The notes under the pieces were generated by a model. It was not told the DNA's origin. It made no database searches and saw only the letters and a program-made list of their open reading frames with translations. 64,000 nt of DNA from an uncultured virus (IMG/VR IMGVR_UViG_3300045115_000228) (lineage: Duplodnaviria; Heunggongvirae; Uroviricota; Caudoviricetes): IMG/VR virus record IMGVR_UViG_3300045115_000228, one strand, 5' to 3'. Made by a program: the position numbers and the translations under genes. This document shows, piece by piece, positions 20,446 to 64,000 of the stretch. Every line of letters begins with the position of its first letter. Positions within the stretch are counted from its first letter, which is position 1.

Positions 20446-20837
20446 TTCTCCTCCACGCTCCACCCTTCCCCCCTCGCGACTTCCATCAATGCTACCGGAA
20501 AACCCCTTGGCACGTCAAGGACATCCCCTTGGGCCCCAGACTCCGCGAGGATTCGCCTCACCAAGTCGAGCTGCGACCACCTGAAGTACAGGTAGGCGTC
20601 GCTGTGCCTGGAGTCCCTGTCGTCGGTGTCGGCGACGTAATGGCGAACCCCGAACTCCTCGGCCAAGGCCTTGAGCTGCTGGTGCGCTTCCCTCGTCTCC
20701 TCGTACCTCTCGATGTGGGCGGCGTCGTCCGGTCCTTGCGTGAAGAAATCCTTGTGGCCGGCGCCGAAGTCGTCGGCGCAGACGCACTCAAGGCTGACGT
20801 CCCAGTCGTCCACTTGTGCCACCCTGACGATCCTCAT
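20442..20837 (-). CDS. Hypothetical protein, N-terminus MRIVRVAQ
   Basis: 131 aa with ATGA overlaps on both sides. Confidence 0.75.
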   Translation of the reverse strand: MRIVRVAQVDDWDVSLECVCADDFGAGHKDFFTQGPDDAAHIERYEETREAHQQLKALAEEFGVRHYVADTDDRDSRHSDAYLYFRWSQLDLVRRILAESGAQGDVLDVPRGFPVALMEVARGEGWSVEEK

Positions 20838-23800
20838 TGGCTCCCCCCGAACAGCATCTTGACGGCCGCCACGACCCCCGGATGCGTGCCCCTTGGCAGG
20901 CGGGACAGGGGGAACCACCCGTGCTCGTCGCTCTCCCAGTTCAGCCGGATGTTCCTCTCGATGGTCGCCTTCTGGTCTGCCGTCACGTCCATCCTGAACG
21001 TCGTGTACTTGAAGTTGCCGAAGGGTATCGTGACGCTCCCGGCGGGAGTCCCATCGGGGTTGTGTCCCATCTCCTCTCCGACCTCGGAGTGGGCCGAGTC
21101 GCGCAGAGTGTCCTCATCGAACTCCACCCCCTCGCGTTCCTCGTCCTCGACGTGGCCCTCGGTCCCCTTGACGGCGCCGCCCGGTATCCCCCACATCCCG
21201 GGGTCGTACGTCTCGGACGACCTCTTGAGCAGGAGGATCGTGCCGTCGTCGGGGCAATGGTACATAACCCCCGACCCGGCAGTGCCCCAGGTCGTGGCGG
21301 TCATCTTGACCACGCCGCCAGACTCGGCGACTTTGTCGCCGACGAACCTGCCGGGGAACTGGTACATGAGGATCATCCTTGGGTCCGAGATCACCATCCC
21401 ATGAATCATCTGGTAGACGTCGTCCGAGTCGAACCCTCCGGCGACGAACTCGTCGAACTGCTTCTTCAGGGCAGGGACGGATGACATGACGACATTGAGC
21501 CTGTCCTTGTTGATCGTCCCGACGTCGAACGTCTCTTGCCCGGCCGGTTCCGCGGCGTCGGCGCAATCCTCCTTCGCCTCGCCCTTCGACCTTGCGTACT
21601 CCTCCTTGATCTCGCGCTCGGCGACGTCCGGGCCCGCCTGCTTGGCCCTCCTCAACCACGCCTTGTGGTCGCGCCAGTAATACCTGAACATAGGCAACGA
21701 CCATCCCTCAAGCTGAGCCTCAAGCACGCGGCTGAACCCCGATCGCAGGGGGTTCAGCTTGTGGTCGCCTTCGAGGGACACCGTCACGGGATGGGCCCCC
21801 GGCTTGACGAACGTGAAGTGCGTGCCGCTCGACCTCGCCTCCCTAAACCCAAGGAAGGTGCACAGGAAACTGCGGACATCCCCGGCCATCATTTCCGGCA
21901 CTCCGCAGTTCGACACCGCCGTCACGATCGGGCCATGGCGAAACGCCCTGATGCCGAACGGCTTCGACCTGTCCGGCTTGGACGCCCTGTACCTCCTGAC
22001 GAAGTCGGCGAACCACCTGCCCTTGGACTTGGCCGCAAGGAACGCCTCGTACTCCTCCCTCGGCACCCCGGCGAACGAGTACTCCCGGAAGTCGCGCATC
22101 TTGAACTCAAGCATCCCGAGGAGCTCGAAGTAGGCCACCTCGCGGATCGCCGACGACTCGACGGGCGTCCACTTGTCGCGGTATTCCGCGTCCAGCTCGG
22201 CGATCAGCTCGCCGTCGATGTCCCTCTCGGCGGACGCCGTCCGCCTGCCGCCGAGGTTGAGGATGTCGGAGGGGGCGACGCGAGGCAGGACATACTGGTA
22301 GCGCCCGGACTCGATGTCGGCGTCGTCCGGGTCGGGGGAGAGGTCGGCGAGCCGTGTCCTGATCTCAAGGACGACCGGTTCCCCTCCGTGCTTGGACACG
22401 GCGTTGTCGGCGTACCCGTCCATCGCGACCCCGCCCGACCGCAGGGACACGTAGACGCCCGCCGGAGCCTGCCCGAAGCGGTTGACGTCCTTCTTGCTGG
22501 GCAGAAGCCCCTCGCGCCTGATGCGGGGCAGGAGCCGCGTGCTCGTGGCGTGGAATGCCACGACGTCCTCGCCACCGATGACCCTCGCCGCGTCGTCGTC
22601 GACCATCCAGTTCACCTCGATCAGGCCGTCGTCCCGGATCCTCAGGCTGTACTTCTCGTCGGCGAAGTCCCGGAAGTACTCCAGGTCGAGCTTGCCGCGC
22701 TCCTCGCCCAAGTCCCTCATCCACTCGCCGAAGTTCGCGTCGTCCCTCTGCATCATCCGCATGGCGACGGGGCGCCACGCCTCCGCCTGCGCCAGCCTCT
22801 TGTGCCTGCGCTTGCGGTTCTTCTTCACGACGTCGCGGTCGAACTTCGTCCCGGCGCACTCCGGGAAGAGCTGGGTGTCGAGGTGCCCGTGCTGCGGGGC
22901 GTCGTCCACGCCGGTGTCGCGGTTCAGCCTCCCGGTCACGGCGATCCCGGAGGACGCCGACCCGAACGTCTCCTTGCTCCTGTGGCCGCCGCGCAGCCTG
23001 TCGTGGGCCACCTGGGGGTCGCGCGGCACGTAGATGAACTCGTGCGGGTCGCCCAGCGAGACGAGCTCGTCGGGGTAGACCTCGATCGCGAACACCCTCC
23101 ACTTCCGCCCGTGGAACTGCATCTCGCCGTGCCTCCTGGCGTACGGGAGGGACTCCGTGACATACGACCCCGGCATGATGCCCCCGATGGTGGCCGCGCG
23201 GAAGACCCTGATCTTCCTGCCGGCCTTGATGGCGTCCTTGAGGTGCAGGGAACCCGGCACCCCGTCGAGGGACCTGTCCCACCCCTTGCCGAGGACATCC
23301 TCGAACCTCCACTGGTCGTCGTACGAGGCGAGGTCGGCGAGCGTCTCGTGTCCCGACGCCCCGGCGCCCTCGCCCATCTCCGCGCGCCACTCGAACGACC
23401 TCCTCGGCGATATGCTGCCGCTCGCCGGCACGTCGATGTCCATGGACGCCAATTCCTCCGGCGTCGCTGGGAGCGTGGCGGCCATCTTCGGCACGCCGCC
23501 GGCGGGCCTGATCTGGGACGGGTCGAACGCGACGTAGACGTCGGAGACCATGGCCCCGTCGTGGAAGCCCCGGATGACGACCCCGTCGTGCCCAGCGTCC
23601 TTGGCGATCGGCACGAGCATAGGCGGAGACCACCTGTTCTCGCCCATCTCCTTGGACGTGACCTCAAGGGGGTTCTCGATCCTGAGGTGGTATCCCCTGA
23701 CGAACATGTCCTCCCCGCGAGCGTTGGCGGCGTTGTAGCGCCTGACGTGGGCCTTGCCGGCGCGCTCCGCGAGCTCCGGCGTCCCGAACGCGCCGCCGTT

Positions 23801-26800
23801 GAGCACGATGTTGCCGTCGTCGTCCGACGCGGCGTAGAACCACTCCTCGCCGTCCCCGTAGGACGACACGAGGTCCGGGTGGAGGCTGGCGGGGACGTCC
23901 CTGAAGTCGGCGAAGAAGGCGGCGTTGTCCGGTGCGGACGTGAAGAAGAATCCGCCGTAGTCGGGCCTGTCGACGAGACCCCTCGTGATGCCCGTCCCGA
24001 TGAGGTCCTTGCTGAACCTCTCGACCATCGGCTCCTTAGACCCGTGGTAGACGACGAGCGGCTGCCCGTCCTCTCCGACGACCTTGCTGTTGCCGAACCA
24101 CGACGCGGGCGGCTTGGCGGAGGCGAGCCTCGGCTGCGTCCCCCACATCGCGATGTCCGTCAGGGTCTTCGATCCTCCCTCCACGAACATGGCGGCGAGG
24201 TCTCCCCTCTGGTGGACGACGTTGAGCATCTGGTCGACGACGAGGAGTTGGGCCTCGGCCGTCTCGGCGGCCGCGAGCTGGAACAGGAGCCTCTCAAGCT
24301 TTGGCAGGCCGTAGTCGCTGACATACCATCTGCCATCCTTCGTCTCCATGCCATCGACGAGCCTCTCCCACTGCTTGTCCGTGAACTCGTGCCCGTGGTC
24401 CTTGATGGCCTCCCTCATGTCGACCATCGCGTGCCCGCTGATCTCGTTGGATATGCGGAGCCTGACGACGCCGTCGAACATCGCGTCCGCTATCTCGCGC
24501 ATCCCGGCCTCGTCCCTGACGAAGCCCATCTTGGCGTAGTCCGTCCATATCTTCTTCAGCCTGGCGGCCGGCACCAGCGGCCAGTTGACGAGCCACTTCC
24601 TCTTCCGATCCCTGTGGGCCCTGAACGACCCGACGATCTCGTCGATGATGGAGTCGTACCTTTCCAAGTGCCTTTCGGCGACGCGATCATGCGTCTCGTC
24701 GTCCGACGCGGCGATCTTGAGCGGGCGGGACGCCAGCCTTGCGAAGGACTCGTCGTCGGGGGCCTTGGCCACGAGGCCGTTCCTCTCGGCGTCCCTGGCC
24801 TTCGCCCTCGCGAACCCCAGCGCCGCCGCGTTGATCCTGTCGTCCATCTCGGAGTACCCCGTCATCCTGTCGGCGGCCAAGTCGTAGATCCACGTCCATG
24901 GCGTGTCGGAGGTCTCCATCTGCGAGAGGCCGAAGATCTCCTCGTGCGTGACGCCGCGCTTCGCGTTCCACCCCAGCGCTGCCCTCCTGGTGATGTAGAC
25001 GGCTTCCGACTTCAGGCTGTGGGCCATCGTGTAGCCGAAGATGGCGCCCTTGGCGTACTCCGGAGGCTTGCGTTCCGACAGGACTATCGGGAATCTCTCC
25101 GACGCCTGCTTCGCGACGTTGTCGGCGAGGGGGCCCACGATGCGTCCTCTTCTTGTCGAAAGCATGATGGCGGACGGGGGGATCGCCATCCCGTTGTAGG
25201 CCGGCTCGTAGGCTATCACCGACCCGTACTGGTGCTGCTCGATGACCTCTGGGAAGTCCTTGCGCCTGACGGCGACCCATGCGTCGCGCCCGAAGTCGCA
25301 CGGGCGGTCGGAGAACGACCCGGCGTCCATCCCCTCGGCGGCGATGGACGGCAAGTCCCTGGCCCAGCAGTTGTGGTAGACGTAGCGGTCATCCTTGGGG
25401 GCGTGCCGCGGAAATCCCGCCGGGAGCACTCTGGCCGTCACCTGGCCCTTGCCCCACTCCGACCTGGGCTTGCGACCGACGCTGGCGTCCATCGCCACCA
25501 GCTTCGCCTTGCTGGGGTCGAAGATGACGTAGTTCGTGAACCCCCACTCTTGCGAGCCAGAGGGGCCCCTGAAGTTGGCGTACTCGATCTCTGGCAGTAT
25601 CCTGATGCCGTCGTACCCCATCCCCTCGACGGTCTTCCTGAACGCGACCGGGTCGTCTCTGCCGTACATGAACCTTTGCAGGTACCTCGCCGCGTGGATG
25701 TCGTACAGCCTCCCGACGTTGACCTCGACGGTCATCACGTTGTGGCCGAAATACTTCGCGACGTCAGGCGACTCCGTCAGCCAGAAGCCTGGGACTTGGC
25801 TGCTTTCTTCGCCAGGCGTACCCTGCCCGCTAAGCTCCAGCGACGGGTCGAACCAGTCGAACATCTGACTGTCCGTCCCGTGGTAGGCGACGATCGTCCC
25901 CCTGGGGACGAACCCGCCTTCGGAATGTTTCTTGGACATCCTCGCCGCGATCGCCGCCACGTCGTCCTCCCCATGGTCGAGCCTCACGTGCTCGCCCCAC
26001 TCATGGAACTGCGTCCCAGGCTCGCGTGACGGCTCCTCCCCGACGTTGTCGAACTGCGCTTGGTAGTCTTCGAGGATCCCCCTTGCCTCTTCGGTGAAGA
26101 AGTCGTCCGTCGATGCGATGCGTATGTCGAAGTCAATGAGGGACGCCTGCGTCGCAAGACCCCACAGCTTCCGGTTCCTTCGTATGAACCTCCTCGCCTG
26201 CTCAAGGGCCTCGCCCGCGATCTCCTGCGACGCCTCAAGGTCCTCGACGCTGGAGTCCTCGATCCTCCACCCTCCTGGCTTGAGCGGCTCGGCGTCCGAC
26301 CCCAGCATGTTGGCGGCCACCGTCGCCTCGTCGCGCAGGCCGCGGGCGTCGGCGTAGCGGCCGTCCGGGGCTCGGCAGGCGGCGTGGGCGAGGATGCCAT
26401 ACTCCTCCCCTTCCGCCTCGTCCCTGACGAGCTCGTTGAAGACCACGATCGGCCATCCCGTGGCCTCATGGAGGGCGATGGCGAACTCCGGGCAGTACCC
26501 CCTGCAGAAGGATCCCGCGTCCAGCCTGGCACCCTTGGGGGAGCCGAGGCTTCCCGCGGTCGCCTCCAGGCCGTCCGCCGAGACGTCCTCCTGCCTGAAC
26601 CTCATGGACTGCGTCCGGCCCTTCCTGTCGAGGAAGAACCCCCAGACGTCGCCCTCCGGCAGGTCGACGGCCCATCCGCGCAGCCAGTACCTCCCGCCCA
26701 TGGTGCCCGTCAGGCGCAGCCTGGCGCGGCGAGGCTCCGTCCCCTTCATCCTCCCTGAATCGACCTTCGCCTTCACCCTCTCGATGGGCGGGAAGTCACC

Positions 26801-29800
26801 GTACGTGCGCTCGACGGACTGGGCGATCGTCGTCTTGGCGGCGAACTCCCTCTCCTTCTTGGCGAGGGCGTCGGCGACGTCCTGATCCGTGGAGTCGTCC
26901 CGGACGTCGATCGCGAAGGTGGATCCGTGCGACGGGGACCCGGCGCGCACGTCGTTGAAATACATCAGGCGGATGTCGTCATGGCTCTGCTCGCCTATGT
27001 AGGTGATCCCGAGCCTTGTCGCCACGCCGTGCGGATCGATGGCCGCGGTGACCGGCGCCGCCCCCGCCCTCCCGGGCGACATCCATGTCCTCCCGACGAG
27101 GACGAGGTCGCCCGCGGACTCCATCTCGCCCGTGCCCTGGTTGAAGCGGATGTCCCTCGGGTCCACCTTGAGGCGCATGACGATCCCTGGATCGTCCTTC
27201 GACCCCCTCATCTTGGCGTAGCCGGACGCCCCCTCGCTCCCGAACGCCGACCTGTCCCTGGCATGGCTGAAGTATGCGGGGCCGATGATGCGCCTGTCCT
27301 TGAGGATCCTCTCCCTGCTGCTGGCAGTCGTCCCATGCCAGACGTAGACGTCGTACTCGTACTTGTCGAGCGACAGGCGATAGCCCTCCGCATGGAGCTC
27401 CTTGAACAACGACATGGCGGCGTCCGCCTTCTCCCCCATTTCCCTGACATACTCGCCTGCCCTCCTGCGATCCCGCTCTCTCCACAGGGCGGCGTATTCC
27501 TCGACGAGCCTTGCCTGCTCCTCGTCGCCCGCCTTCCTCGCCCTCTCGACCTCGATGTGGAAGCCGCTGGGGTGGAGGGAGTCCATCCTGACGTTCCCGC
27601 GGACGGACAGGTCCTCGGCGTAGTCCTTGACGGTCATTGCGGCGAGCTCCGACATCCTATCGGTCTTGACCGATGCCGTCCTGATGTTGGCGACGTCTTC
27701 GGGGGTCAGTCTTGATTCCGCGACCTCGACATCCGCAACCTCCACATGCGCCCCTTCCCTCTTTTTCCACGAGTAGCCACCGCCGGTCTCGTAGACGGAC
27801 GGATCGATGTCGACGACGAAAGCGCACTTGAGGTCGTGGACGAGCAGGTAGGCGTGGTCGTCTCCGTCCTGTCCGCCGTCCGCAACGTCATAGCCGTGAT
27901 CGACGAGCACGCCCGCCATGGCTTGGGCGACGGCGTCGCACACGCCGCCGCTCCCGTACGTGGGGTCAACCCCATCCTCGTCCTGCTCCCATCCGTCAAT
28001 GACCTCGTTGGCGGCGGCGGCAAGTCCCGGGCGGAGAGCAAGCAGGGCGTCGCGCTCGACGGCCTTCGTGACAGGGTTTGTCACGTCGATGTCGAATGTG
28101 AACTCCTGCTGTTCTGGCGTCGGTTGGTTTCCGGCGTGCTTTATGATCACGTCGAACTTGCCAGACGCCACGCGCTCCCTTCCGACGATCCTGATCTGGT
28201 CGGGACGGAACGCCACGTAGTGCTTCTTCGTCCCATAGTCCTTGACGATCCCGTCGTACCCGAGGATTTTCGTGACCGCGTCGTTGAACGCCTTCGTGTG
28301 GCCGCGGTAGAAGTCGTTGGCTATCGCCCAGAGGGCCCTGATCGTCGCGTCCCCTCGCGAAAGCTGGGCGTACGCCTTCACGGCCTCGCCGATGACCTTC
28401 CCCCTGCCCTCGAAGCTCACGTCCCCCCAGTTCGCCAGGGCGTCCTCGAACTCCGGCGACGCCATGAGCAGCCTACGGATCTTGCCGGGCGGGATTGGGC
28501 CCGTGGCGTCGGCGTCCAGCGGGTTCCTGATGTCGAGCTCGACTTCGTGGATGGTCGGGGCGTCCTCCCCGCCAGGCTTCGGCTCGTCCTCCCTCCGCCT
28601 GGTGGTGTATCCGCGAGCCTCGTTCCTGTCGGTCGTGAAGTAGAACCCGCTGCCGATCTCGTCGTTGCCGACGCCCGTGAACTCGTACGAGAACTCCTTG
28701 ATGTCCGTCCCGCTGCCGTGGTAGGCGCGTATCGGGGTTTGGGTTGACGCTGTCTTGTTGGCCATCGCCCGGCTTGCGAGCCCTTCTGCGAGGCTTTCGC
28801 CGGCGCGCTTGGACGCCGCTTCCTCCACGTCCAGGCGGTCGAAGCCATGCTCCCGCATCAGCTCCGAGGCGACCTCCCCGTCAACGGACAGGACGTCTAC
28901 CTCTCGCGCCCCGTCGCGGATGGCCCTGGCGAGCCTGTGGTGCCCGTTCTGCAGCACGTACCCCTTGGGGTAGCGGAAGGCGAACAGGGGCTTGCCGTCG
29001 TCCCTCGTGGGCTTGGGGTCGTCGCGCCCGAAGGCCGCCGTCTCCGTCGGCTCAAGGGACGACGTCGGGACGCGCTCCCGCCTCGGATCGAGCCTGTCCG
29101 CCAGGTCGTCGGCCGACGGCGGGGCCCGCCGCCTGACCTCCTTGAACGGCGTGATCTGCTCCGGGCCTATCCTGCCTGCGACGCGCGCCCCGTGGCCGTA
29201 GACGAGGCTCTCGGCGAGGGAGTCGCCGAGGCCCTGGAACCGCTCGCCGCCCCAGTACCTCTTGTTCCTGAGCTGGTCCAGGTCCGGGCGGAGCCTCCTG
29301 ACGGTCAGGTCGACGGCGTAGACCACGATGTCCTTCCCGGGGTACGCCATCCTCGCGAAGTCCTCGGCCGACGTCGGGAACACGCTGAGGTAGACGTAGC
29401 CGCTCCCGCTCTGGTAGGAGTGGCGCCTCCTGCCGCTGGTCGGGAGCAGCCCCTTCTCCATGACGGGGTGCTCGGCGGACGTTCCGTGGTACATGCGGAC
29501 GAACCGGTTCGGGTCGGACCGGAGCCAGGCGGCGACCCTGCGGACGGCCTCCGGCGTCTCCGCGGAGTAGAAGAGGCCGTCTATCTCGGGGTCGCCCGTG
29601 AACCTGGCCTGCGCCGTCCTGACGACGACCGGGAACCCCTCGTCCCGCTCGGACTCCGCCTGCGCGACGTCCGCCTCGGCGAACGTGTCTCTGATGTACC
29701 TCCGCAGCGTGACGCCGTCGCCGTCGAGGGAGGACGGGTATGGCTCGCCCGGCCCCATGCGGAACTGCCGGCGCCACACGCGCACGGCGGCCTCCGCGAT

Positions 29801-32800
29801 GGCCTCCGAGCCATGGCTGCGGTCGTCGATGAGCCAGTCGTAGGCCTTCTCCAGCGTGTCGATGCCGCTCTCGATCATCCGTTCGGCGTCCGACTCGTGG
29901 GACTCCGCGCCGGTCGCGGCCTCGCCAGAGACCGTCTTGACAGTGGCATCCAACGACGCCGTGATGTCCGGGCTTTCGGGATCGAACCCGCCAGAGTTCT
30001 CGACGGCGGACTTGATCTGGCGCGGATCGAAGACGACGTACACGTCGGTCTCGACCTCCGCCCCGTCGAGGGCGTCCATGATGTTCCTGAAGATCACGCC
30101 GTCGTGGCCGCCCTTGCGGGCGTCCCCGATCTGCGCGGCCATCGCCGCCATGTCGCTGTCGCCGCCCTCGTAGTCGTGGACGGCCGGGTTGACGATCCTC
30201 AGGTACACGTCGAACACGTGCGCCTTCCCCCGCGCGGCGTCGTTCCTCGCCCTGTCCTTCGCCATGTACTCTTCGAGCTTGCGCTCGGCCTTGGCGACCT
30301 CCGCCTCCACCTCCGCGTCGCCGGCGGCGCGGGCCTCCGCCTCGGTCCCGTAGTAGTCCGGGCTGCCGTACGTGTACGGGTCTCCGAAGTGGCTGTAGGC
30401 GTGGATGACGTACTCGAAGCCCTTCTCGCCGCCCTCCTCGTACGGGATGACCTCCACCGTGGACGCCCTGGCGCGCTCGACAGCCTCCTCGTGCTGGGGA
30501 AGACGGGACTCAAGCGTCATCCGCATGCGGGCGGCGTTGTCCATCGCCCTGGAGTGGCTCTCGGGGTCGGCGTAGGACGCGGCGACGCCCCTGTCGCTCA
30601 CGAAGAACATCCCCCCGGCGGCGAACTCGGACATGTTCCTGCCCGCCTGCGAGAAGTCGAACACCTTGAACTTGCCGCCCAGCGTGCCGTGGTGGACGAC
30701 GAGCGGCCTGCCGTCCTCGTCCACGACCTTGCTGCCGCGGAACCATGCGTCGAACGCCTTCGAGCGCGACGCCTTCGCCGCGAGCCGGATGCCGTCCCCG
30801 TCGCGGGGGGCGATTGACGACGCCCTCCTGGCGGCAGGATAGAGCCTGCGTCCCTCCTCCTGGGCGATCACGAGGACATTGTTGCCGGGCAGAACGAACT
30901 GTATGTCGAACCCATGGAACTGTCCGTCCAAGGACTCCTTGACGTCGGTGTTCAGTTCAAGCACCCTGGGGCCGGCGGCCGACTCCGGGACCGACACGAC
31001 GATGTCCCAGTCGCTGTCGGGTCTTTCCGTGCCCCTGGCCCTGCTGCCATGGAACCATATCTCCGTGGCCTCGGGGACGACCCTTCTGATTTCCCTGACG
31101 ACCCTCGCCCCCATGGGGCACGAGGACGCCATCCTTCTGCCGGGGAGGCTGAACTTCAGCTCGCCGGCGAGCCTGCTGGGGATGACACCCTGCGGCGCGG
31201 AAAGCCTCGAAGGGTCGTGCTCGTCCCAGTACCACACGCCGCACGCCTGGGGAATCTCCTGCTCGACGTAGGCCTCGAAGATGGCGTCCTGGTCGCCGTC
31301 GGAGAAGCCCACGATCCTCTTCGTCTCCGTGCCCTCGTCGTAGCCCTCGGGGTCGTCCTCCATCCATCCGCTGACCTCGCCGTCCTCGTCGTACTGCGCG
31401 ACCAGCGTGCGCTCCTTGGCCTCCCACCTCCCCTGGGCCTTCGCCCACTCGAAAACCATAGGGACGTCCTCGACGGCCTTCGACCCGAACGTGCCGTAGA
31501 AGTCCAGCATCTTCCTGCCAGGGGGAAGGGTGACCCAGACGGGGTTCGTCCCGCCGAGCTTGGCTATCTCGATCCACGAGTCGACGTACTCCGGCAGCGT
31601 GACGGCGACTCCCCTGTAGAGGGACCCGCCGACCGTCCCCTCCCTTGACGCGTCCCACCCGTTCGCGGCCAGAGACTCGGCGTCGGAGGACATGTGGACG
31701 AAGCGGCGGTTGGGGATGAACTTCGGGCCGACCGCGGCATGGCTCCTGATGCGCGCCCCCTTCGGTCTGTCGATGAGGGTCGGCTCGGACGCGTCCCTCG
31801 GGCTTCCGTCCTCCATCGGCTCCTTGCGCCACGCGTCGGCGGCATCAAGGTTCGTGAAGTATTGTACCCCCCTGCCGTCCGCCCATAGAACCTCCCAGCA
31901 CTTGCCGTCTGGGGCGATGCCGGTGTCCTTGGAAAGGACCTCCTTCCACTCCCGCCTCTTGAGCAGTTTCTTCGGGTACCCGAGCACGGCGGGGATCGTC
32001 CTGGCGCGCGCGAGCCGCGCCCCCTCAAGCCGATGGTTCCCGTCCTGCAGGCTCCACCCGAATTCCTCGCTGTACACGAAGCAAACCGGGGGGACGTCAT
32101 CCCCACGCTCGAACACCCTCCTCCACTTGCCGACGCCCCTCCTGTAGTACCCCGTCCTGTTGTCCTCGGGCGACATGACGTAGTCGAACGGATCGGACCA
32201 CACGTAGTCTTGCGGGTCGAACGGGAGCCTGAAGGCCTCGTTGCCGTCGTGATGGAACCTCGATGTCCATGGCTCGCGAGTCGTCCACCTGTCGGGAGGG
32301 GCGAGCGCCTCAAAGGCCTCCCAGCAGCCCGCGAACTCCCTGCGGCCAGACGCCCCTGCCGAGACGATGATGGGGACGGATTCCTCCATCCTGACGTCCG
32401 GCGACGACGAGTCGAACCTCTTGGACGGCGGGACGATTTCGCCGTCGCCCCCCTTGACGACGGCGTCGGCCAGCTTGATGTTGTTCGCGTCGAACACGAC
32501 GAGCGACACGTTCTCCCCCTCGTGCCTGTGCCAGTCGGGGACGACGACGGCGTCGTAGCCGTCGGCGTGCGCCGTCGCCTGCAGGTCGGTCCACCGCTCC
32601 ATCGACCAGTCGCCCTCGTAGTCGTACAGCGTCCCGTGGAGGACGGCGTCGAACGGGGTCAGTTCCTCCCCGCTCTGCCGGTCGACCCACTCGTCGTAGG
32701 TCTTCCCCCACTCGTTCGTCCATCGCGCCGCCTCGACGTCCCCCTCGTCCGTCAGGTCGAGGACCTTCGGGGCCCTGACGTAGAACCTCCGCGCCTTCCC

Positions 32801-33151: not shown

Positions 33152-33160
33152 CCCCATATT

Positions 33161-33186
33161 GTTCGATGGGGCATGCCCCAAAACCT
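33161..33186 (-). promoter_or_regulatory. AGG-N19-GAAC promoter motif of the polyprotein gene
   Basis: Exact spacing; ATG 33151 is 9 nt downstream. Confidence 0.6.
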
Positions 33187-46218: not shown

Positions 46219-46244
46219 AGGAAGCGTGGCATGTTCTGATGAAT
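46219..46244 (+). promoter_or_regulatory. AGG-N19-GAAT promoter motif before tnpB
   Basis: Exact spacing; ATG 46253 is 8 nt downstream. Confidence 0.55.
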
Positions 46245-46252
46245 CAATGGAC

Positions 46253-51245: not shown

Positions 51246-51752
51246 TCAGCGGTCTTCCCACCCGTCCCAAGTCCACCGTCCCTCTCCCGTCGAGTCGGCG
51301 ACGAACTTGCCTCCCATCGTGCCGTCCTTGACGTAGTGGCTCCAGAAGTTCCAGATCGAGGTCCAGGCGATCCTCGCGGCGTTGTCGATGCGGTGGTTGC
51401 CGCCGCCGTCGGACATGGAGTACAGGCCCCACCCTTCCGGCAGGTCGCGTCTGGGGTCGAACCCGGGGAGCAGCTTGACCTCCCTCTTGTCGTACCCCTT
51501 CCTGGCGTTGTTGACCGAACCGCCGCCCCTCCTCCTGTCGACGGGGACCGGGATGGGGACGGCAAGCAGGCGCCGTTCCGCGGCGGCGTACTCGGACGGG
51601 CTGGGGCGCGTCTTGCCGAACCTCGCCATCTCGGCGAGGATGGCCTCGGACTGCGCCGGGGACAGGTTGACGGGGTGGTGGCTCGAAACCCATCCGATGG
51701 GGTCGTCATGGGCCTCCGCGGCGACCTGCTGGGCTATCCTGACGATCCTCAC
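51246..51752 (-). CDS. Hypothetical protein, N-terminus MRIVRIAQ; weak ParB-like GNHR motif
   Basis: GTG start; SDGGGNHR. Confidence 0.7.
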   Translation of the reverse strand: MRIVRIAQQVAAEAHDDPIGWVSSHHPVNLSPAQSEAILAEMARFGKTRPSPSEYAAAERRLLAVPIPVPVDRRRGGGSVNNARKGYDKREVKLLPGFDPRRDLPEGWGLYSMSDGGGNHRIDNAARIAWTSIWNFWSHYVKDGTMGGKFVADSTGEGRWTWDGWEDR

Positions 51753-54308: not shown

Positions 54309-55759
54309 GGTCTGACTCCCCCGGGGACTTCGAGGCTCTTCCTGAGTTCCTTGAACGGGATTACCTTCACGTCGCCGTGGTAGCGGCGCAGGTAGCGGGC
54401 CATGACCCTCTGGCCCCTCGTGTTCTCGGAGTGGATGACGACCGGCGTGCGGGGGCACAGCCGTTCCTGCCCCATCGCCCACGCCACGTCCTCTCCCGTC
54501 TCCTTGGGGTGGGACAGGTCGCGGTCGAGGTACACGCGGGCGAACCTGCGGGAGCGCAGGAGGTCGACGGCGGCCCTCGCGCTGTGCGTGACGGTCACGT
54601 TGTCCCCCCCGAACGCCGCCTTGAAGATCCCGATGCGCTCGGGGTCGCCCTCAAGCACGAACACGGACGCCACGCGCCCCGTCGGCCCGACGCCCTTCCC
54701 GATGACCCAGTCGGCCCTCACGAGGTCGACCTTCGGATGCACGGACTGCGGCTTGATCCGCATGTCGTCGAAGCCCTGGTCCTCCACCAGCACCCTGTCG
54801 CCCCTGTCCTCGATGACGACCATCACGTGGTCTGGATCCTCGTCGGCGTTGGGGTTGGCGAAGCGGACGCGCGTCCCAGGCTCAAGCGCGCCGGTCTCCG
54901 CCTGGGCGGTCTTGGCGGCGCAGTCCGGGCACACGCCCTCGAAGTGGCGCTTCGGCTTGGAGCACCTGCAGGTCTGCGAGTTCCCGCAGCGCACGCACGA
55001 CAGGCGCAGGTCGTGCTGCGTCCCGTCGGGATCCAGCTCGTCCTCTATCTGCCTCCATGTCCTGGAGGATGCGGTCTTGGCAGGCTCCCCGTCCTTGCCG
55101 TCCTTCCCGTCGGCCTCCGGGAACGCCGGCGGGCGGCCCTCCTTGCGCCTCTGCTCGTTGACGAACCTTTGGAAGCCAGCGTCGGACTTGGACGTCGAGA
55201 CTGCGGCGCTCTTGACCCCCATTGCAGGGGATCCATGCTGTTCTTGGACTCTGCGTCCGACGTCCGTCAGCGAGAGCCACGCCCCTCCATGGGCGCTTCT
55301 GGATCTTTCGGTCACGACAGCCACAAGCCCCTTGTCGATCAGGGACTTGACCACGGCCTCGAAATGGTCGGACGGGAACCTGCTGTGGTTGGCGTTCGTC
55401 GTCGCAATGCCCTCGGCCTCTTGTTGCGCAAGGAAATCCAGAACCAGCATTTGTCTCGGCGTGAACCCCCCGAGCGTCGCGGCGTTCTTGGAGAGTTCCT
55501 CGACCCTGTCCTTGGCCTCGTCGGCGCCCCAGTCCTTCTTCATCGGCCTCGTGTAGTACTCCGGGTTCTCGGCGAGGTGGTCGCGGGCGATCTTCTCCGC
55601 CTCCTTCGGGTCGCTGGTGTGCTCAAGCTCGACCGCCATGCCGATGGCGAGCTGCTTCTTGTCGCAGCACCCGTCGCCTGCGGACTTGGCGAGCATCGAT
55701 GCGACGACGGCCTTGGCCACGTCGCCCAGCGGAATCTCGAAGTCGGGCGCGATCCTCAT
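54305..55759 (-). CDS. Modular protein: DUF5661-like, wHTH, Zn module, SH3-like and cyclic-phosphate-processing receiver-like domains
   Basis: QLAIGMAVELEHT..IARDHL.E.PEYY; C-terminal VFVLEGD..YLDRDL..TGEDVA..VIHSEN; linkers KSAG, KNAA, KSAA, KTAS, KTAQ, RVAS. Confidence 0.75.
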   Translation of the reverse strand: MRIAPDFEIPLGDVAKAVVASMLAKSAGDGCCDKKQLAIGMAVELEHTSDPKEAEKIARDHLAENPEYYTRPMKKDWGADEAKDRVEELSKNAATLGGFTPRQMLVLDFLAQQEAEGIATTNANHSRFPSDHFEAVVKSLIDKGLVAVVTERSRSAHGGAWLSLTDVGRRVQEQHGSPAMGVKSAAVSTSKSDAGFQRFVNEQRRKEGRPPAFPEADGKDGKDGEPAKTASSRTWRQIEDELDPDGTQHDLRLSCVRCGNSQTCRCSKPKRHFEGVCPDCAAKTAQAETGALEPGTRVRFANPNADEDPDHVMVVIEDRGDRVLVEDQGFDDMRIKPQSVHPKVDLVRADWVIGKGVGPTGRVASVFVLEGDPERIGIFKAAFGGDNVTVTHSARAAVDLLRSRRFARVYLDRDLSHPKETGEDVAWAMGQERLCPRTPVVIHSENTRGQRVMARYLRRYHGDVKVIPFKELRKSLEVPGGVRP

Positions 55760-58686: not shown

Positions 58687-58697
58687 CTCGTTAGGGC

Positions 58698-58766: not shown

Positions 58767-59633
58767 TTACGAGCCGACGCTCACCTCGACACGCGCAATG
58801 GCGTAGTCGTTGATGATGACGATCCCGATTTCCTCATAGACGACCCAGCCTAGCCTGAGTCTCTTGGGGTCATCGGCCGGGATCACGCTGATGTCCTGGC
58901 GCACGGGCATCGCACCGACGTACTCCGCCGGGGCGAGCACGAACACATACGCCGTGGGCACCCTGCTCGACACGTGGATGTCCGCCGTGTAGATGTGGCC
59001 GAACAGCCCCGTGGTCAGCACTTCCTTCTGGGTGGCCTGGTCGAACACCGTCTGGCCCCAGCTACGGATGTCGCCGTAGCGGATGGCGTGGCAGACGACC
59101 TTGCCGACCGTCAGGTCGCGCGACTCGACCGCGACGAACGCCTGGTTCAGCGCGGACAGGGAGAGGGCGCCACCCGTCGAGACGATCTGGTTCGCCGCGG
59201 GGACCGCGGTGTTGATCGCCGTGAAGATGTTCGTGTCCTCTTCCTTCTGGATCGCTTCCTTCGCCTTGATCTGGGCGCGGTCCACGATGTAGAACCGGCG
59301 CGCCTTCACCTCCGAGATCCTGACCGTGGGGTTGACCACGATCTCGAACGTCGGGACGAGGATCTCCTCGCCTTCGGTGATGAACTCCGGCGCCCCACCG
59401 CGGCGGCTGAGGCGGACGGCCTTCGAGCGCACGTCCTTCTCGTACCTGGCGTACGCGCCCTGCGGGAGCTCGTCCACCATGATCAGCTTGCGGCCGACCG
59501 CCTGGTACTCCAGAGCCCTGCGGATGGGCTCCACCATCGCCTGCGCCAGCGCAACGCGTCCCTCCGGGCTGTCAGCAGCCTGGGCGATGAGCATTGCGCG
59601 CCTCTCGTTGATCGCTCTCTTGTCGATAGCCAT
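58767..59633 (-). CDS. Major capsid protein (HK97 fold, encapsulin/linocin-like type)
   Basis: GRVALAQAMVEPIRRALEYQAVGRK..VDELPQG..VPTFEI..KEED..GWVVYEEIG; strong RBS, terminator, follows the decoration and scaffold genes. Confidence 0.85.
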   Translation of the reverse strand: MAIDKRAINERRAMLIAQAADSPEGRVALAQAMVEPIRRALEYQAVGRKLIMVDELPQGAYARYEKDVRSKAVRLSRRGGAPEFITEGEEILVPTFEIVVNPTVRISEVKARRFYIVDRAQIKAKEAIQKEEDTNIFTAINTAVPAANQIVSTGGALSLSALNQAFVAVESRDLTVGKVVCHAIRYGDIRSWGQTVFDQATQKEVLTTGLFGHIYTADIHVSSRVPTAYVFVLAPAEYVGAMPVRQDISVIPADDPKRLRLGWVVYEEIGIVIINDYAIARVEVSVGS

Positions 59634-60536: not shown

Positions 60537-63500
60537 CTACTGGGCCGCGGAGTCCTTGCGGTCGTCCTCCATCGCGCGCTCGTGCACCTGCGCGTTGCCG
60601 ATCGTGAAGATGCCCTTGAGCTGCTCCGCCATCGTCTTCGGCATCTCCGGCCTGTAGGTCGAGGCCTCCTGGACGATGGGCGTCGCGAGCGTCGGGGCCG
60701 GGGCTGCGGAGGCGACCTTCACGGCCTTGTACAGCCTCTCGGCGAACGCCTCCATCCTGTCGACCTCGATCTTCGAGAGGTCCTCGACGACCGCGTCGTA
60801 GTCGGACTCGGCGATCCTGCCGAGGCCCATCAGCTTCGCCGCGACCTGGCAGGCCTTCTTGTGGCGGGCCGCCGCGATCTTGGCGACCTGCTGGTCGCGC
60901 TTCTCGGCGATCACCCTGCCGCGGACGTCCACGTTGATCGCGGGCATCCCCTTCTGGGTGTCCTTCTCGCCGCCGATCAGGCTGTTGTCGACGGGGATGT
61001 CGGGCAGGCTGGCGTCAGGGATCGTCTCCTTCTCGCCGCGGGTCTTCGACGCGGCCTCGTTGCTCGGGATGGTCGGCTTGCCGGCATCGACGTCGATGTT
61101 CTTCTTGCCCTCGTTGCCGATCGTGCCCGTGCCGCCCTTCACCTTGCCCTCGACGCCGGACGAGATGTCCTCGACCTGCTTCGGCTTGTCGGCCTGCTTC
61201 TGGAGGTCGCCGGGCTTCGCCTCGGCGATGACCCTGCCCCTCATCTCGGTGCTGACGGGCGGGGTGCCCTTCAGCGTGTTGGCCTCGTCGCCCATCGTGG
61301 CGCTGTCGGCCGGGATGTCAGGCAGCGTCGCCTCGGGGATCGTCTCCTTCTCGCCGCCGATCTTCGACCCGCCCTCGTTGCTCGGCACCGTGGGCTTCTT
61401 GGCGTCGAACGGCTGCTCCTTGCCGATCGTCCCCGTCCCGCCCTTCACCTTGCCCTCGACGCCGGACGAGATGTCCTCGACCTTCGTGGGCTTGGCGGCG
61501 GTCTTCACGGCCTGCTTGGAGGCGGCCACGGCGTCGGCCGGGGGAGCGATCTCCTCCGGGGCCGCGGGGGCCTCGACGGGCGCCTCGGCCTGCTCCACCT
61601 GCTCCTCGACCTGCCCGGCGAGGTCCCTCGCCACGGCCTCCGGGATCTCCACCGTCACGGTCGCCTCCTCGGCGACGTCGGCGACCGGCGCCACGTCGTC
61701 GAGCGGCGCGCCCAGGTCGGCGTCCAGGTTGACTGGCGCGGCCCCGGCGGCCTGCGCCCCCTTCGTCATGCTCTTTTCCTTCATGATCCTCAGCTCCTCC
61801 GTGGTGAACCGGCTGTCGCCCGCGAAGGCCTCCAGCCACTCGTTGGTTTCGGTCTCCTTCGCGTACTTCTTCTGCATGGCCTTGCACATCGTCTCGGCCT
61901 GGGCCTGCTTGTACCCCTTGCCCTTCCAGATCGAGAGGCACTTCTCCATCAGGTCGGGCTTGCGGTACACGGCCGCGAGCTTCTCGACGTCGTTGCGGCT
62001 CCTCAGGCCGAACGCCTTGAGCTGCTTGCAGACGCAGTCGGCGAGCGGCTTGCCCTTGCAGGGGCCGTTCGTGGCCACGGCGTTGGCGCCGAACCTGCGG
62101 GACACGTACTCGGCGCAGTTCGCCTCGGGGAAGGCCGTCTCGGGCTTGCCGTCGGCCGCCGCCGCGCGGCGCATCCTGGCCGTGACCTTCATCAGGGCCA
62201 CGTACGCGGCCGCCGCCTTCTTGCACGGCTCGCAGTCGGCCGAGAACACCTTCTTCGGGTTGAGGGTCCACGCGATCTGCATGAACCCGGTCTTGTCGGC
62301 GGCGACGAGGATCTCCTTGGTGGTCTTCGTCTCGCAGGACGGGCAGACGTACGCGACCTTGCCGGCCCCCTTCTCAAGCGGCTTGCACTCGGTCATGCCG
62401 CAGGCGGGGCAGACGTGCCCGTACTTCTGCTCGCAGGAGGCGATCTTCTCCAGCCCGGCCTTGTCGAGCCTCGTGACCGCCGCCACCGGCATCTCCGGCA
62501 GCTTCGGCTCCGTCACGCCCTCGTCGTTGCCGCCCGCCTCGAAGGACATGCCCTCGGGGTTGAGCACCTCGACGTTGACGTGCACCTCGTACTTGGCTCC
62601 GCAGCCGTTGCACTCGAACGCGCCCGGGGGCAGGTCCTTCTTGCCGGTGGTCGTGTCCGAGCCCTTGCAGAACGGGCAGATCGATCCGGGCATCATCTGC
62701 TCGCCGACGCCCGGGGCCTTCTCCTCGTCCTTGTCGTCCTTCTCGTCCTCGGTGAAGTTCTGCAGGCCCTCGCCCGCGTCCATCGCCGGGGCGCCCTGCG
62801 GGAGCGCCGATCCGGGGTCCTGCGCCCCTCCGAGGTTCCCTCCGCCCGGCAGTCCGCCGGCGGCGCCGCCGAACTGGGCGGTCTTGACCTTCCTCTTCGC
62901 GGAGGCGGTCGGGAGCGGGGCGTTCGGGGCTGGGGCTGCCGGGGGCGCGCCTGCCGCCCCGGCTGCGCCGGCAGGAGCCGGCGGAATCCCGGCGCCAGCG
63001 TCGCCGCCGACGAGCGCGTCGAGGCCCTCGCCCGTCGCGTCACCCTCCTTCGGGGCGCCCTCCACGTCCTTGCCCTGGTCGGCGAGGTCGAGGGACACGT
63101 CGGCCGCGGTTTCGCCCTCCTCGGTCTGGATCGCGATCTGCACGGAGCCTGCGGCCCCGTCGACCGTGACGTTCGTGATGTTGGCGACCTTGAGGCCCTT
63201 CACCTTGCTCGCGACGACGATGGGCTTGCCGTCCTTGACCCTGTTCTCCTCGATGGTCAGCTCGCCGGATCCGGCGACCTTGTTGACGAACGCGACGATC
63301 TTCGCCCGCGCCGCCTTCTGGTTGCCCTTGAGCTCATCAATGGTCGTGCCGATCTCCTGGACGGTCGCCTCGATGACGTGCGTCGGCCTCCTGGAGGCGA
63401 GGGCGGCCTTCATCCTGTCGCGTTCCTTGGCCCTCGCGTCGGCTCCGCCGGCCAGCGGGACGGGTTCCGCCGCGGGCGGGGCATCGACCTGCTGGACCTT

Positions 63501-64000
63501 GGACGGGGCGAGGACGGCCATCCTGATCTGCTGCTTGCGCGACGCCGAGGCGGCGACCGCCTCGACGGGCTCGGCGATGACGTCGTCGATGGCGGTCGAG
63601 AGGGCGACGACGGAGTCGTCCTCCGATCCGACCACGTCGAGGACGTCCATGACGACCTCGGGGCTGATCTCGGCGTCCTGGGCCACCAGGGTGCGCAGAC
63701 CGGCCACCACGTCGGCCCTCATGTCGTCGACGGTGACGGAGGCGAGCGTGATGCCCTTGCCGCCCCAGTAGTGGGCCCTGGCGACGACCGACGCCGCCTT
63801 GCCGACCGCCACGGCGTCCTTGTCGGACGTGATCAGGTCGAGCGTGCTCGTGCGGGACCTGGTGTCATCGACGAGCGAGGCAACGGCCCCGCGGATCATC
63901 TGGGGCGTTGCGGAGCAGCGGACGGCCGACTCGGCGATGGAGCGGATGACGGCGGCGGAGTGCTGCTCGGCGGTCTTCACCTTCTGGCGCCTGAACGCGG
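60537..64000 (-). CDS. Large scaffold/prohead-core-like protein (5' end outside the window)
   Basis: Over 1150 aa, open to the window edge; Zn ribbons, acidic low-complexity stretches, two internal repeats, many KTA/KQA/KVA motifs; directly upstream of the decoration and capsid genes. Confidence 0.65.
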   Translation of the reverse strand, partial: AFRRQKVKTAEQHSAAVIRSIAESAVRCSATPQMIRGAVASLVDDTRSRTSTLDLITSDKDAVAVGKAASVVARAHYWGGKGITLASVTVDDMRADVVAGLRTLVAQDAEISPEVVMDVLDVVGSEDDSVVALSTAIDDVIAEPVEAVAASASRKQQIRMAVLAPSKVQQVDAPPAAEPVPLAGGADARAKERDRMKAALASRRPTHVIEATVQEIGTTIDELKGNQKAARAKIVAFVNKVAGSGELTIEENRVKDGKPIVVASKVKGLKVANITNVTVDGAAGSVQIAIQTEEGETAADVSLDLADQGKDVEGAPKEGDATGEGLDALVGGDAGAGIPPAPAGAAGAAGAPPAAPAPNAPLPTASAKRKVKTAQFGGAAGGLPGGGNLGGAQDPGSALPQGAPAMDAGEGLQNFTEDEKDDKDEEKAPGVGEQMMPGSICPFCKGSDTTTGKKDLPPGAFECNGCGAKYEVHVNVEVLNPEGMSFEAGGNDEGVTEPKLPEMPVAAVTRLDKAGLEKIASCEQKYGHVCPACGMTECKPLEKGAGKVAYVCPSCETKTTKEILVAADKTGFMQIAWTLNPKKVFSADCEPCKKAAAAYVALMKVTARMRRAAAADGKPETAFPEANCAEYVSRRFGANAVATNGPCKGKPLADCVCKQLKAFGLRSRNDVEKLAAVYRKPDLMEKCLSIWKGKGYKQAQAETMCKAMQKKYAKETETNEWLEAFAGDSRFTTEELRIMKEKSMTKGAQAAGAAPVNLDADLGAPLDDVAPVADVAEEATVTVEIPEAVARDLAGQVEEQVEQAEAPVEAPAAPEEIAPPADAVAASKQAVKTAAKPTKVEDISSGVEGKVKGGTGTIGKEQPFDAKKPTVPSNEGGSKIGGEKETIPEATLPDIPADSATMGDEANTLKGTPPVSTEMRGRVIAEAKPGDLQKQADKPKQVEDISSGVEGKVKGGTGTIGNEGKKNIDVDAGKPTIPSNEAASKTRGEKETIPDASLPDIPVDNSLIGGEKDTQKGMPAINVDVRGRVIAEKRDQQVAKIAAARHKKACQVAAKLMGLGRIAESDYDAVVEDLSKIEVDRMEAFAERLYKAVKVASAAPAPTLATPIVQEASTYRPEMPKTMAEQLKGIFTIGNAQVHERAMEDDRKDSAAQ
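60905..61495 (-). repeat. Two ~95-100-codon imperfect direct repeats in the scaffold-like gene
   Basis: KPxxVEDISSGVEGKVKGGTGTIG...PSNE...EKETIPxAxLPDIP...RGRVIAE occurs twice. Confidence 0.85.

Follow-up and report, generated by a model that had tools for sequence, protein, structure and literature searches.

The 64,000-nucleotide stretch of DNA analysed here (the window), from the uncultured virus IMGVR_UViG_3300045115_000228, encodes a polyvalent protein of 4115 residues whose domain junctions carry a short motif, [KR]-x-A followed by S and less often by Q, A or G. The same motif abounds in the scaffold proteins of this virus clade and ends the N-terminal leaders of other late genes. We propose, with a probability of roughly 0.6, that [KR]-x-A-S is a cutting signal of the head protease, and that leader-tagged cargo and the fused polyprotein are processed in the prohead. 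The initial annotation, made from the DNA alone, had predicted such processing. Its sequence-level predictions all held and the proposal is partly supported by them.

In the proposed mechanism, [KR]-x-A with a following S, or more rarely Q, A or G, would be the recognition and cutting signal of the clade's head-maturation protease, which would have the T4 gp21/herpesvirus assemblin fold and form the N-terminal domain of a protease-scaffold protein of ~1700-1900 residues. Since the scaffold part contains many sites, it could be cut into pieces and removed from the prohead. Each cargo protein would begin with a seven-residue leader, M-[KR]-[IL]-x-[KR]-x-A, whose last residues are the protease signal. 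Probably in the style of T4 capsid targeting, this leader would bring the protein into the prohead and then be removed. Where neighbouring leader-tagged genes fused, the former leader would persist as an internal linker, so the 4115-residue protein would be a polyprotein, cut in the prohead at ~17 sites into ~15 enzymes (ADP-ribosyltransferases, a nucleotidyltransferase, a NUDIX protein and others). The freed enzymes would travel with the DNA into the next cell. A kinase-CCA protein and proteins of 850 and 484 residues would be processed likewise.

The window is 65% GC and nearly all of its genes lie on the minus strand. Judged by its genes, its source is an uncultured relative of Bacillus phage G. 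The major capsid protein belongs to the phrog_2522 major head protein family and is 54% identical to phage G gp27, which places the phage in the phage G clade. In IMG/VR 170 relatives were found, on contigs up to 548 kb. A tail tube gene is also present, so the window covers late-gene territory. In the closest relative (L002) the gene order is portal-like open reading frame (ORF), 600-residue ORF, protease-scaffold, 210-residue ORF and capsid. As far as the window extends, its genes follow this order, with the protease-scaffold gene placed relative to portal and capsid genes as expected of a head protease. The head genes and the scaffold sites named in the text are the following.

58767..59633, minus strand: major capsid protein, 288 residues.
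60537..63998, minus strand: C-terminal 1153 residues of the protease-scaffold fusion, 46% identical to residues 593-1696 of the 1696-residue L002 protein P0009.
63972-63983, minus strand: scaffold site VKTAE.
62874-62885, minus strand: scaffold site VKTAQ.
61497-61508, minus strand: scaffold site VKTAA.
60708-60719, minus strand: scaffold site VKVAS.

Because the scaffold ORF aligns with P0009 from residue 593 to 1696, the protease part is predicted at its 5' end, ~590 residues or ~1.8 kb past the end of the window. The initial annotation had placed a prohead protease gene outside the window. The protease domain does appear to lie there, but as the 5' part of the scaffold ORF and not as a separate gene. 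Residues 57-225 of P0009 match the head maturation protease family phrog_18299 (E 3.5e-17), which phage G gp19 also matches. A model of the P0009 protease domain, built from an alignment of 45 homologues, had a predicted local distance difference test score (pLDDT) of 86. Its top 27 structure matches were all gp21 proteins or herpesvirus assemblins, and the best match in the PDB was T4 gp21. According to this model the L002 domain has the head-protease fold known from assemblin, T4 gp21 and HK97 gp4. Membership in the Pfam families S21, S77 or S78 was not found: the domain matched only Peptidase_S78_2 (E 0.13), Peptidase_S78 (PF04586) occurred in none of the records of five relatives, and a search of the PDB with the domain sequence gave no match below E 0.1. 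The 45-sequence alignment (A1) has H98 and S149 in every sequence and H175 in at least 90% of them. A motif site ~30 residues from the N-terminus of the protease-scaffold protein, before the protease domain, has an alanine that is invariant (45/45) and lies in a model segment with pLDDT below 50.

Motif frequencies were determined in the scaffold parts of 63 distinct protease-scaffold homologues totalling 111,080 residues, which are related proteins and not independent events.

[KR].AS: 530 observed, 88.8 expected, 6.0-fold.
[KR].A[SQAG]: 1133 observed, 336.8 expected, 3.4-fold.
[DE].A[SQAG], control: 357 observed, 537.0 expected, 0.66-fold.
[KR].G[SQAG], control: 161 observed, 291.3 expected, 0.55-fold.
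[KR]A[SQAG], control: 352 observed, 336.8 expected, 1.05-fold.
[KR]..A[SQAG], control: 379 observed, 336.8 expected, 1.13-fold.
[SQAG]A.[KR], reversed control: 299 observed, 336.8 expected, 0.89-fold.

With P1 the alanine and P3 the basic residue, the register-shifted, reversed, acidic-P3 and Gly/Ser/Val-P1 controls spanned 0.55-1.13-fold. [KR].A[SQAG] was enriched at least 1.63-fold in every one of the 63 proteins, the median being 17 sites where 5.2 are expected, and homologues differ in how many sites they have and where. KTA is followed by serine in 100 of 264 cases, and lineages that do not use KTA have 27-28 K-x-A-[SQAG] sites where ~7 are expected. The initial annotation had called the motif frequent in the scaffold ORF, and VKTAE, VKTAQ, VKTAA and VKVAS are among the sites confirmed there. 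The excess of [KR].AS over controls that are not enriched bears out its standing as the leading short motif in scaffold proteins of the clade.

The giant protein is encoded and organised as follows, with domains called by Pfam scans of the whole chain and of 20 overlapping 400-residue segments.

20834..33181, minus strand: giant polyvalent protein P0001, 4115 residues, no internal stop, third-position GC content (GC3) 0.91.
Residues 90-239: ART-PolyVal 1 (Pfam).
Residues 696-750: nucleotidyltransferase, NTP_transf_2 (Pfam).
Residues 821-1066: ART-PolyVal 2, split by an insertion (Pfam).
Residues 1482-1665: ART-PolyVal 3 (Pfam).
Residues 2430-2560: ART-PolyVal 4 (Pfam).
Residues 3037-3225: ART-PolyVal 5 (Pfam).
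Residues 3675-3730: KTSC (Pfam).
Residues 3965-4111: NUDIX (Pfam match 3976-4096).

The protein recorded by the Joint Genome Institute (P0002, 4107 residues) is identical to it. It is a polyvalent protein as defined by Iyer et al. (2017), with at least two unrelated effector domains in one phage polypeptide. No peptidase family, the embedded MPTase autopeptidase included, was detected in it by Pfam or PHROGs scans of the whole chain or of the segments; this autopeptidase is frequent but not obligatory in polyvalent proteins. In the related polyvalent protein P0003 the place of one module of the giant protein is taken by a C39-type peptidase module (residues ~1935-2110; precomputed Pfam PF03412/PF13529), and an inserted GNAT module is flanked by RAAT and KEAS sites.

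All 15 junction strings and four hydrophobic-strand strings listed by the initial annotation were found in this ORF at the expected places. The listed AKAS (residue 802) is present but falls outside [KR]-x-A-[SQA]; the overlapping RLAA at 799 fits. The giant protein contains 19 [KR].A[SQA] sites, compared with a mean of 10.3 in shuffled sequences (11 of 1000 shuffles reach 19), and 12 [KR].AS sites where 3.3 are expected (0/1000 shuffles reach 12). When all 8000 a.bc patterns were scanned, R.AS ranked 4th (9 vs 2.3, Poisson p 6e-4).

Position is a stronger test of the motif than count. Domain bodies, which make up 33% of the chain, were delimited by Pfam envelopes and by aligning stand-alone homologues, with no use of the motif. 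Only 1/19 [KR]xA[SQA] sites falls inside a body (random mean 6.4, P 0.005). Among 20 body edges, 6 have a site within 16 residues outward (random 1.4, P 0.0007) and 12 within 40 residues (random 3.2), a number that 0/20000 permutations reached. The predicted enrichment of the motif at domain boundaries was therefore observed. The leaderless PAS, glycosyltransferase, TnpB, methyltransferase and capsid proteins of the window have no [KR].AS, and all its non-leader proteins together have 11 where 7.6 are expected. The sites of the giant protein are listed here with their counterparts in relatives.

33017..33028, minus strand: KAAS, residues 52-55, at the end of an N-terminal propeptide of ~50 residues, after FDITI and 35 residues before ART-PolyVal 1; P0010 has IIIASS, with no K.
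31787..31798, minus strand: RDAS, residues 462-465, 21 residues before the start (486) of a block homologous to P0003, which has KVAS.
31124..31135, minus strand: RMAS, residues 683-686, before the nucleotidyltransferase module; P0003 has REAA at the junction.
30818..30829, minus strand: RRAS, residues 785-788, after the nucleotidyltransferase module.
30776..30787, minus strand: RLAA, residues 799-802, with AKAS next, before ART-PolyVal 2; the L007 leader MKIWKIAD is equally far from WFxGSKVV.
29609..29620, minus strand: RTAQ, residues 1188-1191, after FPVVV; P0010 has FPVNIKTAQ.
29528..29539, minus strand: RVAA, residues 1215-1218, probably a chance match; not conserved in P0010 (KNLVS).
28745..28756, minus strand: KTAS, residues 1476-1479, 3 residues before ART-PolyVal 3; a stand-alone L083 protein of this kind starts MNWYKKAN there.
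28163..28174, minus strand: RVAS, residues 1670-1673, 5 residues after ART-PolyVal 3.
27671..27682, minus strand: RTAS, residues 1834-1837, 1 residue past the module 1713-1833; homology to P0003 and to a 154-residue G007 ORF ends at 1832/1833.
26111..26122, minus strand: RIAS, residues 2354-2357, after FDI, 12 residues past the end (2342) of a block homologous to P0003.
25100..25111, minus strand: KQAS, residues 2691-2694; stand-alone proteins start MNWYKRAQ (L012) and MKIYRIGN (L010), and the module at HMMER query 282-393 ends here.
24977..24988, minus strand: RRAA, residues 2732-2735, inside a domain body, probably by chance.
24707..24739, minus strand: twin RLAS and KIAA, residues 2815-2818 and 2822-2825, before module A; P0084 and P0105 have leaders here.
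24119..24130, minus strand: RLAS, residues 3018-3021, between module A and ART-PolyVal 5; P0018, P0039, P0145 and P0129 have RTAS, KRAS, KKAQ and KEAS.
23477..23488, minus strand: KMAA, residues 3232-3235, between ART-PolyVal 5 and module C; P0010 has KMAS and P0003 RTAA, and P0101 starts MNWYKIS.
22787..22798, minus strand: RLAQ, residues 3462-3465; P0010 and P0012 have KKAQ, P0003 KKAS.
22232..22243, minus strand: RTAS, residues 3647-3650, 25 residues before KTSC; P0010 has KTAQ and P0003 KIAA.

Alignment with seven relatives (P0010, P0003, P0012, P0018, P0039, P0145 and P0129) showed that the basic-x-Ala-small core is kept at the junctions while P2 and the flanks differ, as in the sets RLAQ/KKAQ/KKAS/KKAQ, RTAS/KTAQ/KIAA, KMAA/KMAS/RTAA, RLAS/RTAS/KRAS/KKAQ/KEAS and VRTAQ/IKTAQ. 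Unlike the junction sites, the match at residue 1215 (RVAA) is not kept in P0010. This pattern of substitution indicates that the motif is under selection at junctions. It is also enriched in P0003 (10 vs 4.0) and P0005 (17 vs 6.4), and not in P0004, P0006, P0007 or P0008.

These comparisons bear on the possibility that the motif has no function, having arisen by chance in the Ala/Arg/Ser-rich linkers of a 65% GC genome or been inherited with a duplicated ART-PolyVal unit. The insignificance of R.AS in the unbiased scan would agree with chance, and inheritance would agree with the motif-like ending, ..PDITRRA.., of ART-PolyVal units in unrelated polyvalent proteins (P0004). Yet the motif is 6-fold enriched in the scaffolds of AT-rich relatives, where alanine is scarce, it flanks modules of other kinds (module A, module C, the nucleotidyltransferase and the CCA enzyme), four polyvalent proteins including P0004 lack the enrichment, and no permutation reproduced the boundary association. 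The boundary test, the enrichment in relatives, the scaffolds and the conservation of the junctions largely refute this explanation, which we regard as very improbable.

The natural ends of free-standing homologues offer another view of the junctions. Residues 2300-3499 of the giant protein were searched with HMMER against 1.84 billion representative sequences; of 1856 matches with E<=0.001 the best 150 were used, and query numbers refer to this stretch. Among these best 150 of 1856, module A (residues 2825-3017) is a stand-alone protein of 185-220 residues in many organisms. In the matches listed, more than 25 such homologues begin at query 516-530, a range spanning the cut predicted after KIA(A) (525/526), and their C-termini lie at 711-734, spanning the one predicted after RLA (721). 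The termini of more than 25 stand-alone homologues among the matches listed fall on the sites flanking module A, ART-PolyVal 5 and module C. ART-PolyVal 5 (query 719-930) and module C (939-1104) meet at KMAA (933-936), and the module at 282-393 ends at AKQAS (392). An AlphaFold2 model of the same stretch from 69 sequences had a mean pLDDT of 46, with only module A folded; its pLDDT exceeds 90 at query 528-720, which ends 1-3 residues from both predicted cuts. As only module A had sufficient alignment depth, the model was poor overall, and the comparison with AlphaFold domain boundaries proposed by the initial annotation was limited to the two flanks of module A, both of which agree.

Leaders of the form M(V)-R-I-x-[RK]-x-A occur in nine minus-strand genes of the window, in two of them more loosely (VRITPVI, MRIAPDF). 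The DKTAS between kinase and CCA enzyme and the motifs between modules of three further proteins, all noted initially, are present.

3..632, minus strand: 210-residue protein, leader MRITRIAQ.
18403..20445, minus strand: kinase and CCA-adding enzyme, leader MRIVKAQ; DKTAS at 19978-19989 separates the AAA_33 kinase from the PolyA_pol head domain.
20442..20837, minus strand: 131-residue protein, leader MRIVRVAQ.
36212..37981, minus strand: 589-residue protein, GTG start, VRITPVIRR; one internal site, ARTAQ at 37457-37468.
37978..38394, minus strand: 138-residue protein, leader MRIKRLAY.
49068..49478, minus strand: 136-residue protein, leader MRISRVAG.
51246..51752, minus strand: 168-residue protein, leader VRIVRIAQ (GTG).
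51756..54308, minus strand: 850-residue multi-module protein, leader MRIRHIAT; four internal sites, RSAQ (84), RTAQ (429), KKAQ (649) and RVAQ (725).
54305..55759, minus strand: 484-residue protein, starts MRIAPDF; three internal sites, KTAS (228), KTAQ (283) and RVAS (362).

In AT-rich relatives, leaders downstream of the capsid genes read MKIYKIA, MKIVKTAG, MKIIKNAN and MNWYKKAQ. A regular expression for the leader matched 98/12753 ATG positions, 4.4 times the rate at non-start positions, in 35/81 sources, and 56/92 matches in relatives lie downstream of a capsid gene. In the head region of phage G a strict pattern matched 6/60 N-termini vs 3/722 internal windows. The 255-kb G007 record has only about three convincing leaders (MMIIKIAS, MKIRKIT, MKIWKLA), and lineages therefore differ widely in their use of leaders. 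As in T4 capsid targeting, a short shared N-terminal propeptide ends in the presumed head-protease motif, and its ending [KR]-x-A is that of the scaffold sites. The leader's amino acids are kept across 34-65% GC, and its codons are ordinary for the genome of the window. A nucleotide-level cause of the leader, such as rare codons or a start-region signal, was rejected: AGG is the main arginine codon of the giant gene (199/361), and GC3 near the sites equals the gene mean. The AGG preference of this gene, which is 67% GC, fits a lineage that shifted lysine AAG to arginine AGG as GC rose. Relatives also have, downstream of the capsid gene, a family of small proteins in which a leader is followed by G-K-x-T-[IV]-K-[LIM]-S-x-x-E-W-x-x-[IM]-G-K-K-A-G-W and which is often present more than once in a genome (L004:10956, L011:11579/15985/17422, L003:12057, L007:14894, L009:11469); the G007 member is MMIIKIASGKSTLEVSFKEW.

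The initial annotation suggested that the internal motifs are copies of the leader, as if leader-tagged genes had been fused in series. About ten junctions indeed align with the leaders of stand-alone homologues.

ART domain: L007 MKIWKIAD..WFQGSKVV, giant protein RLAAKAS..WFRGSKVV.
ART domain: L083 MNWYKKAN-SYI-AYYGT, giant protein NKTAS-TQTPIR-AYHGS.
Module 2694-2817: L012 MNWYKRAQ and L010 MKIYRIGN, giant protein AKQAS.
NUDIX: L010 MVKIYRFTS..WGLAGSGVMY, giant protein VKMTATT-WGTAGSGVMY.
Module A: P0084 MNWYKKA and P0105 MRIYKIA, giant protein KIAA (residue 2822).
Module C: P0101 MNWYKIS, giant protein KMAA (residue 3232).
Kinase alone: L006 MNWYKKAQ, against the window gene's own leader MRIVKAQ; the L083 kinase also has a MNWYK.A leader.
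CCA enzyme alone: L069 MNWYKTAN and L072 MNWYKFAA, against the internal DKTAS.
Last module of the 850-residue protein: separate L002 gene MKIFKLGKVAQ-VIHDDGIADGG, against ERVAQ-VIPADGIADGG.
Site 228 of the 484-residue protein: a G007 ORF start, MKIKIADGI, aligns just past KTAS.

Whole leaders are even found inside multi-module relatives, namely TMRWYKRAQ with its methionine in P0084, and LNWYKTAK and TNWHKMAE in P0105. Together with the match between junctions and leaders they are direct comparative support for serial fusion of what appear to be leader-tagged genes.

The correspondence of junctions and leaders would also be expected if the leader and its internal copies were only a docking tag, a short basic-hydrophobic strand that loads cargo via scaffold, portal or shell. 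The giant protein would then stay whole, with internal tags adding avidity or being tolerated relics of fusion. The hydrophobic-x-hydrophobic-basic pattern of FDITIK, FDVIIK and FPVVVR is strand-like, as docking would have it, and PMC5512222 describes the virion RNA polymerase of phage N4 and some plasmid polyvalent proteins as delivered unprocessed. We consider docking without cutting unlikely. It leaves unexplained why the scaffold should carry 17 (median) to 29 copies, one every ~70-100 residues, with a strict P1 alanine and then Ser/Gly/Gln/Ala, and why a site just before the protease domain is invariant; moreover, junctions conserve the basic-x-Ala-small core and not the hydrophobic part.

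Another machine might read the motif, either a second phage or host protease or an unfoldase-protease, in which case the leader would set stability or timing and not loading. The leader presumably resembles N-terminal recognition motifs of ClpX. Phage G encodes ClpX and ClpP, both reported in particle proteomics according to a preprint (bioRxiv 10.1101/2024.12.16.628780), and the C39-type module of P0003 (precomputed Pfam) could be read in the same sense. The densest carrier of the motif is nevertheless the usual substrate of a head protease and is fused to one. Leader genes cluster beside the capsid gene on the same strand, with most of the matches in relatives downstream of a capsid gene, and the Pfam and PHROGs scans found no peptidase domain in the giant protein. 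We regard a second machine as quite improbable, and head-protease processing remains the preferred reading.

Several observations weigh against head-protease processing. The protease domain of this phage lies outside the window, and we infer its presence from the 46% identity to a relative over the shared part. Being drawn from related proteins, the scaffold counts are not independent events. [KR].A followed by D/E, K/R or a hydrophobic residue is also enriched in scaffolds (1.4-1.7-fold), so part of the K-x-A excess may be helical composition. In the giant protein the p value of R.AS fails correction for 8000 patterns, so the count alone is only suggestive. A leaderless 236-residue protein with no family match (7435-8145, minus strand) has RMAS, RIAS and RSAS, three [KR]xAS where 0.19 are expected. 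The initial annotation put K or R at the junctions, but a basic P3 is not universal: at least five boundaries (DITAS 1072, AMDAS 2563, FGSAS 3406, KMTAT 3959, LEATAG 2205) have only xxA[S/T/G]. Stretches of up to 520 residues (1837-2356) contain no site. An MRI leader is absent from the giant protein itself, whose first site is at residue 52, and leaders end mostly in A-Q/G/Y/T while junctions read A-S. Of 59 long polyvalent relatives among the HMMER matches listed, 6 reach p<0.005 and most have no enrichment; polyvalent proteins do not carry the motif as a general feature. Finally, it is from sequence that we infer packaging, cleavage after alanine and the targeting role of the leader.

More tentatively, at somewhat less than even odds, we suggest that leader and head protease form a general cargo-cassette system. 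Any gene that gained M-[KR]-[IL]-x-[KR]-x-A would be loaded and trimmed, and the giant proteins would be capsid-processed polyproteins, in effect operons at the protein level. Neighbouring cargo genes could fuse or split at leader sites at almost no selective cost, since the protease would restore the individual products. If true, this would explain the origin of the clade's polyvalent giants and how a ~450-kDa chain could deliver ~15 independent anti-host enzymes. It would also be a double-stranded DNA phage counterpart of RNA-virus polyprotein strategies, with an assemblin-like Ala-Ser protease.

Polyvalent proteins occur widely among phages and conjugative elements. A head-protease code at the junctions, if real, would explain how the domains come free in one large, globally distributed megaphage clade. 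The rule that a leader or junction motif marks packaged cargo would list injected anti-defence enzymes in hundreds of uncultured genomes, a phage protease of this fold would share the Ala-Ser specificity known from herpesvirus assemblin, and the seven-residue tag might load foreign proteins into very large capsids, like the T4 targeting sequence. Phage G, the one cultured member of the clade, shows the same leaders, so the idea is testable at the bench.

Other genes of the window were observed in passing. Directly downstream of the capsid gene, in a block of 58.8% GC against ~65%, lies a 752-residue gene (56372-58630, minus strand) that encodes C2H2/ROS-MucR zinc fingers together with a methyltransferase part and an endonuclease part of DUF559/Vsr-like type. 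In the relatives this position is occupied by a LAGLIDADG homing endonuclease (L002) or by comparable zinc-finger ORFs (L013), and it therefore looks like a hot spot for mobile insertions. A TnpB-type gene of the IS605 OrfB kind (46226-47425, plus strand; phrog_506, E 1.7e-122) interrupts the minus-strand late block. On the minus strand are also a 357-residue protein that matches the actin-like Pfam family Volactin over its full length (5608-6681; E 6.7e-51) and a 174-residue protein with PCRF and RF-1 domains (16841-17365), a short peptide-chain release-factor-like gene in a megaphage. Two sensor-type proteins lie among the late phage genes of that strand, one of 588 residues with two PAS domains (40889-42655) and one of 208 residues with a weak GAF match (33185-33811).

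The proposed system resembles several known ones in part. The herpesvirus protein UL26, in which protease and scaffold are fused, cleaves itself at ..QA-T and ..QA-S (PMC4498786). Like UL26/UL26.5, the phage protein would have an N-terminal serine protease of the same fold, here taken from a relative's model, fused to a long C-terminal scaffold. In both the residue before Ser/Thr is alanine, the pseudorabies virus sites being YLQA-T and VQA-S in the same source, although the phage cut is only proposed. The phage order of His, Ser and His (H98, S149, H175), a putative assignment, recalls the Ser-His-His triad given there. Unlike assemblin, the phage signal has a basic P3 instead of hydrophobic P4/P3, occurs at dozens of sites instead of two or three, and is also present on many non-structural cargo proteins; a Pfam scan detected no sequence similarity between the two proteases.

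In T4, gp21 cuts the scaffold to fragments and removes targeting propeptides of 10-20 residues from internal proteins that are later injected (PMC5694885). The protease fold and short N-terminal leaders ending in the protease motif, as in IPI-III and Alt, are likenesses to the phage system, and here too, we propose, the scaffold would be cut small and the cargo ejected with the DNA, as that source describes for T4. T4 differs in that it cuts after Glu (L/I-x-E) and has leaders of 10-20 residues, compared with seven residues and a proposed cut after alanine here; its cargo is not a fused polyprotein and its protease is not fused to the scaffold. In phiKZ (gp175) and SPN3US (gp245) one head protease acts through a short motif on many packaged giant-phage proteins (PMC5694885; PMC13282480). 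Their motif is S/A/G-x-E, their propeptides are often longer than 100 residues, they belong to another phage clade and capsid lineage, and they have no multi-enzyme substrate of 4000 residues.

The polyvalent proteins of Iyer, Burroughs, Anand, de Souza and Aravind (2017) likewise combine unrelated effectors, including ART-PolyVal, in one chain encoded beside virion genes, and their delivery was predicted (PMC5512222, available part). In that part of the paper the domains are released by an embedded zincin-like MPTase autopeptidase or are not processed, and neither head-protease processing nor a junction motif is mentioned; here there is a junction motif and no peptidase domain. Our searches of the literature on prohead protease cleavage in phage G, jumbo-phage capsid targeting and the leader strings found no description of such a code, and a 2026 review of jumbo phages mentions only the phiKZ S/A/G-x-E motif (PMC13282480). 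Head-protease processing of packaged proteins, with cuts after Glu, is already known from T4, phiKZ and SPN3US. What would be new here is the clade, the assemblin-like Ala-Ser signal with its basic P3, the very short leader and, above all, a polyvalent giant as a head-protease polyprotein.

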